A DNA stretch of 64,000 bases from positions 39,931 to 103,930 of the forward strand of contig NZ_JAUXVR010000009.1 of NCBI RefSeq assembly GCF_030680395.1, given 5' to 3'. The DNA is from Methylobacter sp. GTDB lineage: Bacteria > Pseudomonadota > Gammaproteobacteria > Methylococcales > Methylomonadaceae. The position numbers and the translations under genes were made by a program. The notes beneath the pieces are model-generated. The model worked only from the letters and a program-made list of their open reading frames with translations, made no database searches and had not been told where the DNA came from. Positions 5,756-8,379 of the stretch are shown here, piece by piece (the first letter of the stretch is position 1; every line of letters starts with the position of its first letter).

Positions 5756-7366
5756 ATGATCGAAGACATCAAGAAAACACTCTGGGCCACCGCCGACAAA
5801 CTGCGCGCCAACATGGACGCCGCCGAATACAAACATATCGTGCTCGGCCTTATTTTCGTCAAATACATCTCCGACACCTTCCAGACCCGCCGCGCCGAAC
5901 TCACGCGCAAGTTTGCCGATAGCCAGGACGATTACTATCTTGATGACGCCGACCAAGACCTGATCAATGAAGAACTCGAAGACCGCGACTACTACAAGGA
6001 AGTCAACGTGTTCTGGGTGCCGGAAGCCGCCCGCTGGGAAAGCCTGCGCGCCCAGGCCAAACAGGCCGACATCGGCAAGCGCATCGACGACGCGCTGTCG
6101 TTGATCGAAGCCGAAAACCCCAAACTCAAAGGCATTCTCGACAAACGCTATGCCCGCGTGCAACTGCCCGACGGCAAACTCGGCGAACTGGTCGATCTGG
6201 TCTCGCAAATCGGCTTTGGCGAATCGACTGATACCGCTAAAAACCACGCCCGCGATCTGCTCGGCCAGGTTTATGAATACTTCCTCGGCCAGTTCGCCAG
6301 CGCCGAAGGCAAACGCGGCGGACAGTTCTACACGCCAGCTTCCATCGTTAAAACCCTGGTCGCCGTGCTCGCCCCGCATCACGGCCAGGTATATGACCCC
6401 TGCTGCGGCTCGGGCGGCATGTTTGTACAATCGGAAAAATTTATCGAAGCCCACGGCGGCAAGTTGGGCGATGTCTCCATCTACGGGCAGGAAGCCAATC
6501 CGACCACCTGGCGACTGGCGGCGATGAACCTCGCCATTCGCGGCATCGACTTCAATCTGGGCAAAGAACCCGCCGACACCTTCGTGCGCGACCAGCACCC
6601 CGACCTGCGCGCCGATTTTGTGCTCGCTAATCCCCCATTCAATATCTCCGACTGGTGGCACGGCAGCCTGGAAGGCGACCCGCGCTGGATTTACGGCACG
6701 CCGCCGCTAGGCAACGCCAACTATGCCTGGCTGCAACACATGCTGCACCACCTTAAACCCGCAGGCCGCGCCGGTATCGTGCTCGCCAACGGCTCGATGT
6801 CATCCAGCCAGAACAGCGAGGGCGACATCCGCCGCGCGATGGTCGATGCCGACAAGGTCGAAGTCATGATCGCCCTGCCGGGCCAGCTGTTTTTCAACAC
6901 TCAGATTCCGGCCTGCCTGTGGTTCCTGGTCAAAGAAAAGCGCACTCGACAAGGCGAAGTACTGTTCATCGACGCCCGTAAGCTGGGCAGCATGATCAGC
7001 CGCGTGCAATGCGAATTTACCGATGAAGTCATCGAAAGGATTGCCAACACCGTGGCCGCATGGCGTGGTTCGACAAGCTCACCACGAACGGATGAAGAAA
7101 TCGTTCGCCCTGAGCCCGTCGAAGGGGGGATTTATCAAGACATCCCCGGCTACTGCCGCAGCGTCACCCTGGCAGAAATCGCCGAACACGGCCACGTCCT
7201 CACCCCGGGTCGCTACGTCGGCGCGGAAGCGGTTGAAGACGATGACGAGGGCTTTGCCGAGAAAATGCAAAAGCTGACCGAAACGCTGGGTGAGCAAATG
7301 GCGAAAGGCGCGGAACTGGATCAACTGATACGCCAGAAGTTGGGAGGTTTGGGCTATGAGTTTTGA
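5756..7366 (+). CDS. hsdM: type I restriction-modification system, DNA methyltransferase subunit HsdM
   Basis: 536 aa. The HsdM N-terminal domain reads [32 protein letters not shown]. The AdoMet motif is [12 protein letters not shown] and the catalytic motif is NPPF ([12 protein letters not shown]). Confidence 0.93.
7067..7125. repeat. palindromic REP/MITE-like element inserted in frame inside hsdM
   Basis: The left arm GGTTCGACAAGCTCACCACGAACGG and right arm CGTTCGCCCTGAGCCCGTCGAAGG form an imperfect inverted repeat around a short loop of about 10 nt. In the hsdM frame it encodes [19 protein letters not shown]. Another frame gives the RQAHHER...FALSPSKG signature that I recognise from widespread intergenic repeats. 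Confidence 0.6.
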
Positions 7367-7376
7367 CAGACACCCC

Positions 7377-7412
7377 GTAGGTCGGGTTAGCAGCCTTATC
7401 GCGTAACCCGAC
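7377..7412. repeat. REP hairpin (GTAGGTCGGGTTAGC...GCGTAACCCGAC) upstream of the RAYT gene
   Basis: It is an inverted repeat GTCGGGTTA(G/C)...TAACCCGAC. The same unit recurs at 7986-8075 and 8187-8283. Confidence 0.8.
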
Positions 7413-7426
7413 AACCAATCTCACAT

Positions 7427-7963
7427 ATGCAATACAGACGCGCATTCACCCCCGGCGGCTCCTTCTTCTTCACTCTAGTGACGCAAGGAAGAAAACCCAT
7501 TTTCTCCAACCCCGAAGCAGTCGAAGTCCTGCGCAACGCCTTTCGTAACGTCCGCAAATCGCGTCCATTCGAAATCGATGCAATGGTGGTTATGCCTGAT
7601 CACCTACATTGCATTTGGACATTACCGCCCGGCGATGCTGATTTCGCGACCCGTTGGCGATTAATCAAAACCTGGTTTACCAAGCATTGCGACCCGGCCT
7701 TACACAGCATGCGTAACGCATCCCGCCAAGCGCGAGGCGAGCAGGCCATTTGGCAACACCGTTATTGGGAGCATTTGCTTCGTGACGAAAGCGATTTCGA
7801 ACGTCACGTCGATTACATACATTACAACCCGGTCAAACATGGATTAGCATCATCGCCCATAGAATGGCCGTATTCCAGTTTCCAGCGTTATGTCGAAGCC
7901 GGTATTTTTCCGCCCGATTGGGGCAAAAACGCCATTAATTTTGCAGGCATAGGTCATGAATAA
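7427..7963 (+). mobile_element. REP-associated tyrosine transposase (RAYT, IS200/IS605 Y1 HUH family)
   Basis: 178 aa with the HUH motif in VMPDHLHCIWTLP and the catalytic-Tyr helix YIHYNPVKHG. It is flanked on both sides by its cognate REP hairpins. Confidence 0.85.
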
Positions 7964-7985
7964 ACCCCACAACAAATCACAAACC

Positions 7986-8075
7986 GTAGGTCGGGTTAGC
8001 GATAGCGTAACCCGACAAGCCCCCGATGCACCAAAGACCGAAAATGTCGGGTTACGCTGCGCTAACCCGACCTAC
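7986..8075. repeat. REP pair in inverted orientation (REPIN-like doublet)
   Basis: GTAGGTCGGGTTAGCGATAGCGTAACCCGAC lies at 7986-8016. Its inverted partner GTCGGGTTACGCTGCGCTAACCCGACCTAC lies at 8046-8075. Confidence 0.8.
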
Positions 8076-8080
8076 GAGGC

Positions 8081-8176
8081 TATTCCGGTTTCCAGCATTA
8101 TGTCGAAGCCGGTATTCTTCCGCCCGATTGGGGTCAAAACATCATCAATTTTGAAGGCATTGGACATGAATAAACA
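8081..8176 (+). pseudogene. duplicated 3' fragment of the RAYT gene
   Basis: 8081-8176 aligns with 7871-7966, the last ~96 nt of the RAYT gene through its stop, with scattered mismatches. It is followed by a second REP doublet. Confidence 0.7.
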
Positions 8177-8186
8177 TAATGGCAAT

Positions 8187-8283
8187 GTAGGTCGGGTTAG
8201 CGGTAGCGTAACCCGACAAGCCCCCGACGAACATGTCGGGTTACGCTACGCTAACCCGACCTACGAGGCTAACCCGACCTACG
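8187..8283. repeat. second REP doublet plus an extra REP half-site
   Basis: One REP lies at 8187-8217 and its inverted partner at 8235-8264. An extra CTAACCCGACCTAC half-site lies at 8268-8283. Confidence 0.8.
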
Positions 8284-8285
8284 GG

Positions 8286-8379
8286 GCTGACCGAAACGCT
8301 GGGCGAGCAAATGGCGAAAGGCGCGAAACTGGATCAACTGATACGCCAGAAGTTGGGAGGCTTGGGGTATGAGTTTTGA
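8286..8379 (+). repeat. 94-bp duplicate of the hsdM 3' end (copy of 7273-7366) carrying the hsdS start
   Basis: By hand alignment there are 4 mismatches in 94 nt. This copy contains the hsdS ATG (8369) inside ATGAGTTTTGA, the ancestral stop/start overlap. Confidence 0.85.

Follow-up and report, generated by a model that had tools for sequence, protein, structure and literature searches.

The REPtron of Escherichia coli joins the gene rayT (yafM), which encodes a group 2 REP-associated tyrosine transposase (RAYT; PDB 4ER8), to flanking repetitive extragenic palindromes (REPs). Studies of other RAYTs showed that TnpA-REP enzymes cleave REPs in single-stranded form, just outside the hairpin, at a CT or CA on the 5′ or 3′ side of the REP, and that the end they bind covalently can be passed to any 3′-OH (PMC8266576). 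RAYTs are presented as single-copy, vertically inherited, domesticated genes, and how they enter new genomes is regarded as unsettled (PMC5581495). The window analysed here, a 64,000-nt stretch of the Methylobacter sp. contig NZ_JAUXVR010000009.1, holds an intact, bona fide REPtron of the E. coli type as a co-oriented passenger between hsdM and hsdS of a type I restriction–modification (R-M) operon. A 94-nt direct repeat of the hsdM tail encloses this RAYT/REP cassette, and is probably a recombination scar left when the cassette and hsdS were swapped as modules between related hsd operons. The element type is a known one in an unusual but recurrent context; its interest lies mainly in the association of RAYTs with type I operons and in joints that fall at a defined REP edge.

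It is recognised that hsd genes may be separated by inserted genes (PMC12255300). In type I operons with embedded genes, such as R-MS operons with inserts or those carrying prrC-type passengers, the M, S and R genes are kept with unrelated genes between them, as they are in the window; the difference is that a RAYT/REP cassette as the embedded element was not found described in the literature searched, and the same search found no paper linking RAYTs to hsd genes. A second parallel concerns how such inserts are exchanged. Homology-facilitated illegitimate recombination (HFIR) is an established pathway (PMC3240628) and has been proposed to displace modules in type VI secretion system (T6SS) effector–immunity arrays and at Rhs tips, leaving orphan remnants behind (PMC5361080). 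In that displacement a conserved upstream gene end is the anchor, the other end is illegitimate and orphan remnants lie downstream (PMC5361080; PMC3240628); the window looks alike, with the orphan 3′ end of a RAYT gene and a second hsdM tail in the part of the remnants. The two cases differ in that a toxin tip is displaced there and a transposase cassette here, and in that every illegitimate joint here lies at the same defined sequence, the REP's outer edge, so that the REP or the RAYT may take part.

The RAYT of the window is 43–45% identical to E. coli TnpA-REP, likewise a Y1 HUH enzyme. It aligns to the 4ER8 protein with E = 3.7e-44, the motifs HLHCIW and YIHYNPVKHG falling on the catalytic motifs, and scores 207 bits against the NCBIfam model REP_Tyr_transpos (cut-off 80). 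The gene has been under purifying selection throughout, with a ratio of non-synonymous to synonymous divergence (dN/dS) of ~0.1, at dS > 1, against hsd-embedded relatives and of 0.32 against the nearly identical locus L001. As in E. coli, REP doublets are present and inverted REPs flank the gene, each consisting of a 5′ GTAG and a hairpin that folds as expected. The REP core GTAGGTCGGGTTAGC occurs on the + strand at 7377, 7986 and 8187 and on the − strand at 8061, 8250 and 8268; all six matches in the 64-kb window lie within the cassette (0.03 expected), with no REP copy elsewhere in the window. The same REP flanks RAYT relatives that are at least 60% identical, and the variant GTAGGTTGGGTT takes its place in the most distant, cyanobacterial loci. 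Read on the REP strand, both tips of the cassette have the form C/AG(Y)CC..GTAGG, where the slash marks the boundary. A further REP candidate at 62880–62922 was rejected as an unrelated terminator-like hairpin.

Three features set the cassette apart from the E. coli REPtron. It lies within a co-oriented type I operon, whereas that of E. coli stands among housekeeping genes; no REPs are dispersed over the other ~63 kb of the window; and it has been exchanged horizontally between hsd alleles, whereas vertical inheritance has been described for group 2 RAYTs (PMC5581495). The IS200/IS605 elements are a more distant parallel. They share the Y1 HUH superfamily, hairpins at the ends and the lack of a short target duplication, and the conserved tetranucleotide beside the cassette end (TCAG in the window) recalls their target and cleavage logic. 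The ends of the cassette differ from theirs in being REPs of a widely shared family and not IS-specific ends, and the RAYT scores 21.9 bits against the IS200 model, below the cut-off of 55. An IS200/IS605 insertion sequence was rejected on this score and because the window holds a single full copy of the gene plus one 95-nt fragment.

The original prediction had placed one REP hairpin, an intact RAYT gene and two REP doublets in the 919 bp between the repeat copies (7367–8285). All of these are there; a 95-nt RAYT 3′ end and an 18-nt half-REP, which lie beyond the first doublet (Table 1), had been overlooked. The doublets form very stable hairpins: the fold of 7964–8290 has a minimum free energy of −157.9 kcal/mol (z = −12).

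The repeat itself was recovered by a repeat search of the window as 94 nt at 96% identity (7273–7366 and 8286–8379), with four mismatches at 7291/8304, 7313/8326, 7348/8361 and 7354/8367, and its length and identity are far above chance. It had been claimed from the sequence that the last 94 nt of hsdM recur with four mismatches, that the ATG of hsdS lies inside the second copy and that both genes are intact. Each of these points was borne out: the ATG (8369) falls within ATGAGTTTTGA, with a GGGAGG ribosome-binding site 8 nt upstream, and both genes are intact, Pfam-supported open reading frames (ORFs). With a conserved tail on either side of the cassette, neither hsdM nor hsdS is broken, and the duplication may persist for that reason. 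Three of the four differences between the copies are at third codon positions and synonymous in the hsdM frame, and the states found in the second copy also occur in other hsdM alleles; the fourth, at 8326, would change E to K in that frame and has a unique state. By these states the second copy looks like the tail of another hsdM allele. A classical target-site duplication was rejected on the length and divergence of the repeat and on the variable length of the repeated tails in relatives, in agreement with the original prediction.

Empty junctions are present in close relatives, where the ancestral overlap of 11 nt that had been deduced from the repeat is seen directly. In the cassette-free loci L084 (hsdM 555–2174, hsdS 2164–3486) and L086 (hsdM 5001–6569, hsdS 6559–7893) the two genes overlap by 11 nt, and L087 has the same overlap with another downstream gene. 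Most close hsdM alleles lack the cassette. In other relatives the slot that follows hsdM, or the one that separates hsdS from hsdR, is filled by various genes, among them DUF1016/YhcG, a nucleotidyltransferase-type pair, DarT–Macro, DUF4268, Schlafen/AlbA_2 and Fic; the Schlafen/AlbA_2-HTH gene occupies the same slot in L084, L085, L087 and L012. Copies of gene ends accompany some of these inserts. In locus L086, which has no RAYT, the hsdR 5′ end is repeated over 249 nt beside DUF4268 (9598–9841 and 10863 onward), and L022 has three copies of the hsdR 5′ end (125-nt repeats at 4316–4417, 5762–5886 and 7684–7808), two of which bracket a RAYT cassette and another gene. Since gene-end copies flank inserts with and without a RAYT, duplications that regenerate a gene end appear to be a general habit of these operons.

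Comparison with relatives reveals the cassette region as a patchwork. Against L001, from a Methylobacter metagenome-assembled genome, the window is ~92% identical across hsdM and ~98% identical from roughly 7300 to 8080, and dS between the two is 0.344 in hsdM vs 0.049 in the RAYT. The left breakpoint of this L001-like block lies within the first repeat copy, between 7294 and 7347. From the step in identity and the contrast in dS it follows that the last ~65 nt of hsdM, the left REP, the RAYT and doublet 1 share far more recent ancestry with L001 than hsdM does. The left junction, TGA followed by CAGACACCCCGTAGG, is identical in L001 and near-identical in L002. To the right of 8080, L001 diverges: its REP edge is followed by only ~14 nt of hsdM tail (GGGTATGAGTTTT) and then by an hsdS that is 36% identical.

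The two units of the cassette also differ in origin. The unit 7871–8080 is 98.1% identical to L001, whereas the block 8081–8285 is 94.3% identical to the RAYT allele of L002, including a diagnostic indel block, and 88.9% identical to the window's own first unit. By this comparison, the block 8081–8285 is evidently the orphan tail of a different cassette, and the locus a mosaic. An in-situ tandem duplication of 8081–8288 was rejected since the unit is closer to the other allele. The earlier suggestion of recombination between two different hsd loci fits the L002-like second unit, the L001 identity step and the dS contrast, and is a better account than the duplicative repair event offered beside it.

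Joints at the right-hand side of the cassette fall at its REP edge in relatives too. In L003 a 45-nt hsdM tail is repeated past a REP, and in L005 the REP edge is joined into the middle of hsdS; on the left, the cassette of L002 is preceded by a truncated DUF1016 gene that ends in the same TATGAGTTTTGA/CAG junction. The conserved right edge ends in ...CCTAC-NN-GGCT, and by a hand count 11 of 15 cases have G (C on the REP-reading strand) directly after it; this base differs, with AGCC kept, at three joints (window 8080/8081, L014 and L022). The sequence joined to the edge shares 2–5 nt of microhomology with the terminal GGCTG(A) of the element: GCTG in the window (with the hsdM tail at 8286–8289, GCT lying within the coordinates of doublet 2), CTG(A) in L005, TG(A) in L003 and ~2 nt in L001.

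It is proposed that each swap would pair a homologous crossover in the conserved hsdM tail, which acts as the anchor, with an illegitimate joint, guided by microhomology, where the right-hand REP has its outer edge. The pathway would thus be HFIR, with which the identity step within the hsdM tail (~7294–7347) and the 2–5 nt of microhomology at the REP edges of the window, L001, L003 and L005 are compatible. At least two such joints would be stacked in the window, at 8080/8081 and at ~8288/8289. In the older event, a REP edge would have been joined to an hsdM tail and hsdS at ~8288/8289. In the recent event, an L001-like block would have been imported by a crossover at ~7294–7347 and a joint at 8080/8081 and would have overwritten the greater part of an L002-like cassette. 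What was left of that previous cassette would be its orphan RAYT 3′ end, followed by the second hsdM tail.

This account of the repeat, although favoured, has to contend with several observations. The two repeat copies are mutually closest among the alignable alleles, with four differences from each other and at least five from any other, so that in-situ duplication followed by divergence or gene conversion is possible for the original event. A donor allele with the window type of REP edge joined to the second hsdM tail and hsdS was not found. All right-hand joints lie exactly at the conserved REP edge (...GGCT/G), which a purely random illegitimate process does not predict, and the RAYT may therefore be involved. 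Finally, the linkage of the locus across a 34-nt stretch identical in both copies (7314–7347 = 8327–8360) rests on the original assembly, since contigs built at k = 31 cannot phase it. The first and third of these points bear on a live rival, or contributor, in which the RAYT itself made the duplication in situ. Its single-stranded REP would be cut at the C/A tip just outside GTAG and the held end passed to the 3′-OH of a nascent strand at a replication fork; synthesis would then restart ~91 nt behind the exit point by template switching and copy the hsdM tail twice around the cassette, and later deletions or joins at the same tip would give the shorter tails of relatives. The cleavage chemistry of TnpA-REP enzymes, the shared CAG...GTAGG form of the two tips on the REP strand, the single conserved edge at every resolvable right-hand joint and the closeness of the two copies all suit such a process. 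It is nevertheless unlikely: the second unit comes from another allele and the cassette has a different history from hsdM, so that inter-allelic recombination is certain; a similar gene-end duplication occurs without a RAYT in L086; no RAYT duplication of this kind has been described; and base C7367, to the left of the cassette, is not in the empty sites.

An assembly artefact, either a chimera of co-existing strains or a short-read mis-join through the REPs and the 94-nt repeat, is very improbable. The window comes from a metagenome-type assembly, the matching runs are metagenomes only, and an exact-protein look-up found its HsdS in one Logan contig of one source-like run only and no record of its RAYT protein; a search of JGI metagenome contigs for the start of hsdS gave only two unrelated chance matches. 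The reads were checked in k = 31 contigs of a groundwater run (X1) and of a run at ~5x depth (X2). X1 contigs tile 6808–9200 with no mismatches at roughly single-copy depth (38–71 over the locus, 54–56 in the flanks), so that all three critical junctions lie in error-free contigs: hsdM tail into left REP (7318–7414), doublet 1 through the orphan fragment to doublet 2 (8048–8262) and REP edge into the second repeat copy (8235–8356). The second unit (8048–8262) has a depth of 38–40, somewhat lower than the 54–58 of its flanks, which may reflect cells that lack the unit or a coverage bias in hairpin DNA. Apart from the 34-nt stretch, by reading of the sequence, no identical run of 31 nt or more is common to the repeated parts, and the four variant sites lie within 64 nt and are thus phased by ordinary 150-nt reads. 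In X2, one 646-nt contig joins 7313 to 8327 in a cassette-less form; either it reflects a genuine deletion or an empty allele, or it arose in the assembly graph. This contig was rejected as proof of an empty or excised allele, as it has no unique k-mer and the rival branches are missing at ~5x, where such a join is the expected graph artefact once short branches drop out. Similar architecture in the independent genomes of L001, L002, L003, L005 and L012 also speaks against an artefact.

In E. coli, REPs stabilise upstream mRNA and lower distal expression, as work on malE–malF and related work has found. Selection of the cassette as a regulatory module, whose hairpins would uncouple or down-tune hsdS and hsdR relative to hsdM, or stabilise the upstream hsdM mRNA, to the benefit, for instance, of an operon newly arrived in a host whose DNA is unmethylated, is improbable. 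The original prediction had likewise suggested that the hairpins could change the M:S stoichiometry or act as an attenuator. The idea would account for the consistent placement and orientation of the cassettes in all readable operons (below), for the stability of the doublet hairpins and for the retention of the cassette with an intact operon in the window, in L012 and in the part of L001 that its contig covers. However, several cassette-bearing operons look decayed: L005 has hsdS cut mid-gene and hsdM and hsdR split, L003 has an IS630-like ORF (read from its translation) and only a remnant of hsdS, and L065 has a fragmented hsdR. In L004 (Methylobacter marinus A45; 5740–5840), the RAYT follows a remnant of hsdM with an internal deletion, where a 16-residue motif meets the C-terminal tail at a microhomology of GCTGGGCGA; judged from this arrangement, the cassette evidently outlived its operon. 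Such decay, together with the many close hsdM alleles that lack a cassette, argues against a need for the cassette in R-M function. Furthermore, no intrinsic terminator is predicted on the + strand of the cassette, and a promoter/terminator scan was not above shuffled expectation. A sediment metatranscriptome contig of a 96%-identical relative spans hsdM tail, REP and RAYT (7211–7822), which hints at read-through, with DNA carry-over possible; the RAYT would be expressed by read-through from the hsd promoter.

The placement of a RAYT in an R-M operon had been called unusual. Relative to the literature it is, but it is not a one-off within this RAYT clade. Type I hsd genes lie within 6 kb in 15 of 80 fetched loci with RAYT relatives of 56–97% identity, or 16 of 81 with the window, in a sample drawn by similarity to the window's own hsd-embedded RAYT and including about six loci of one orthologous Methylobacter group; without that group, 10 of ~74 loci are still hsd-embedded. 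The host operons represent four or more hsd families (their HsdM proteins are 83–96%, 54–59%, 35% and 23–30% identical to that of the window), and the embedded RAYTs fall at about eight separate places in a neighbour-joining tree of RAYTs. Each of the 16 RAYTs points the same way as its hsd genes, and wherever the order is readable it lies after hsdM and before hsdR; about ten directly abut hsdS. HsdS is the commonest immediate downstream neighbour by Pfam (7 of 70), and PADLOC identifies Specificity_I in seven downstream and three upstream immediate neighbours and MTase_I in four upstream. The exceptions to this recurrence of type I models in PADLOC are mad3 and several PDC-S02 models, each with three upstream neighbours.

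Genomes that carry type I systems have about two of them (PMC12255300). From this number, a random 12.5-kb segment is estimated to touch a type I system in ~1% of cases, and type I operons thus appear to host this RAYT clade at a rate far above chance. When the window is compared with the Azonexus locus L012, the RAYT (71% amino acid identity), the Schlafen protein (70%) and HsdR (75%) prove to have diverged to a similar degree, which would fit long co-residence in the operon. Some relatives, L003 among them, have extra REP doublets nearby. On plasmids, only distant homologues of the RAYT were found, and the one context inspected, on a Chromobacterium plasmid, is not hsd-linked. A RAYT/REP lineage specifically adapted to type I operons, which as often-transferred and positively selected defence operons would be its vehicle between genomes, and whose RAYT might itself make the module-swapping joints at the REP tip (TC/AGCC), can be entertained tentatively, because the embedded loci are numerous (16 of 81), are spread over at least four hsd families and over the RAYT tree, and are co-oriented, internal wherever readable and in about ten cases adjacent to hsdS. 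Type I components are also, mad3 and PDC-S02 aside, the sole defence families that recur among the immediate neighbours.

Table 1. Coordinates of the cassette, the repeat copies and the host operon in the window.
Feature	Position	Strand	Evidence or remark
hsdM, type I methyltransferase subunit, intact, 536 aa	5756–7366	+	Pfam N6_Mtase 4e-106 and HsdM_N
Repeat copy 1, true hsdM 3′ end, ends at TGA	7273–7366	+	Repeat search; contains breakpoint vs L001, 7294–7347
Left tip CAGACACCCC, then left REP: GTAG and hairpin GTCGGGTTAGC...GCGTAACCCGAC	7367–7412 (REP hairpin 7377–7412)	+	REP-core matches, folding
RAYT (TnpA-REP) gene, intact, 178 aa, HUH and Tyr motifs	7427–7963	+	NCBIfam, PDB 4ER8
REP doublet 1, REPIN-type long hairpin, outer edge ...CCTACGAGGCT	7986–8080	.	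Repeat search, folding; right end is a breakpoint
Orphan 3′ fragment of a second RAYT allele, 95 nt including stop	8081–8175	+	Repeat search
REP doublet 2 and 18-nt duplicated half-REP, outer edge ...CCTACGGGGCT	8187–8288 (doublet 8187–8264; half-REP 8268–8285)	.	Repeat search, folding
Repeat copy 2, copy of the hsdM tail, now hsdS leader	8286–8379	+	Repeat search
hsdS, specificity subunit, intact, 444 aa, two target-recognition domains	8369–9703	+	Pfam Methylase_S, two stretches
Schlafen/AlbA_2-HTH gene embedded in the operon	9700–11208	+	Common passenger of the operon family
hsdR, restriction subunit, intact, 1056 aa	11205–14375	+	Pfam HSDR_N, SWI2_SNF2, T1R_D3-like, T1RH-like_C

The host operon is a complete type I system by Pfam, with an intact HsdM, an HsdS with two target-recognition domains and an HsdR with nuclease and motor domains, all co-oriented; in the ORF map its genes abut or overlap everywhere except across the cassette. 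HsdM proteins of 88–96% amino acid identity occur in Methylobacter, Methylovulum, Desulfobulbus, Massilia, Janthinobacterium and others, and the GC content of the operon is 55–63% vs 35–48% in its flanks. The operon starts ~460 bp past a tRNA-Ser gene (5206–5295), and homology with relatives from other genomic contexts starts abruptly at 5721–5755. On these features the operon is widely transferred and was acquired horizontally in the window. As a whole (5721–14375) it resembles a small island; no integrase or att-like repeat was seen there, and an Rfam scan of 5–15 kb found the tRNA only. The target-recognition domains of HsdS are unlike those of all relatives found. A phase-variable switch of specificity by an hsdS inverton or shufflon was rejected, as only one hsdS is present at the locus; the REPs are the sole inverted repeats, and the adjacent enzyme is an HUH transposase and not a tyrosine or serine recombinase.

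Several other repeats lie in the operon and its relatives. Within hsdM, a non-REP palindromic element, GTTCGACAAGCTCACCACGAACGG...CGTTCGCCCTGAGCCCGTCGAAGGG (7067–7127), is inserted in frame and makes HsdM 14 aa longer than its 522-aa relatives. Its k-mers are at far higher depth in the metagenome runs, and many contigs fold back at 7065/7126, from which it follows that it is a member of a widespread repeat family. A segment of hsdR varies in frame: the window has an unrelated 111-nt segment (12447–12558), L005 lacks ~90 nt (10595–10610) and L003 holds a REP doublet of the cassette family (10624–10765) that leaves the reading frame unbroken. The Schlafen/AlbA_2 gene contains three overlapping copies of a 12-nt tandem repeat, GTTCACCGATAG (10973–11015), which encode 14 residues. 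In L087 (Methylovulum miyakonense; 8506–8630), a RAYT-less REP doublet lies in frame in the first codons of hsdS and adds 31 residues (VGRVSD.VTRQ...NVGLRFANPTY); the cassette REP family is open in this frame, which explains a spurious ORF at 7956–8372 in the window. Elsewhere in the window, another short repeat family, TCACCACGAAGACACGAAG, has four copies (18689–18710, 22104–22176 and 39395–39414), of which the two at 22.1 kb are inverted and ~55 nt apart, and may be the host genome's own REP-like family. At 46767–47190, a unit recurs with starts near 46767, 46899 and 47151, so spaced by 132 and 252 nt.

The recurrence of a RAYT lineage in mobile type I operons offers a concrete and testable route for the spread of RAYTs. 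For R-M biology, the locus suggests that conserved gene ends serve as recombination handles, by which operons may take up or shed passengers and exchange specificity genes without loss of function. It also supplies natural junctions at a defined REP tip for the study of RAYT cleavage chemistry. If the association is hitch-hiking only and the repeat a scar only, the locus would be a tidy, ordinary case of modular operon evolution. If the RAYT of such an adapted lineage does make the module-swapping joints itself, it would provide an HUH-transposase route to the remodelling of R-M operons and to changes in their specificity.

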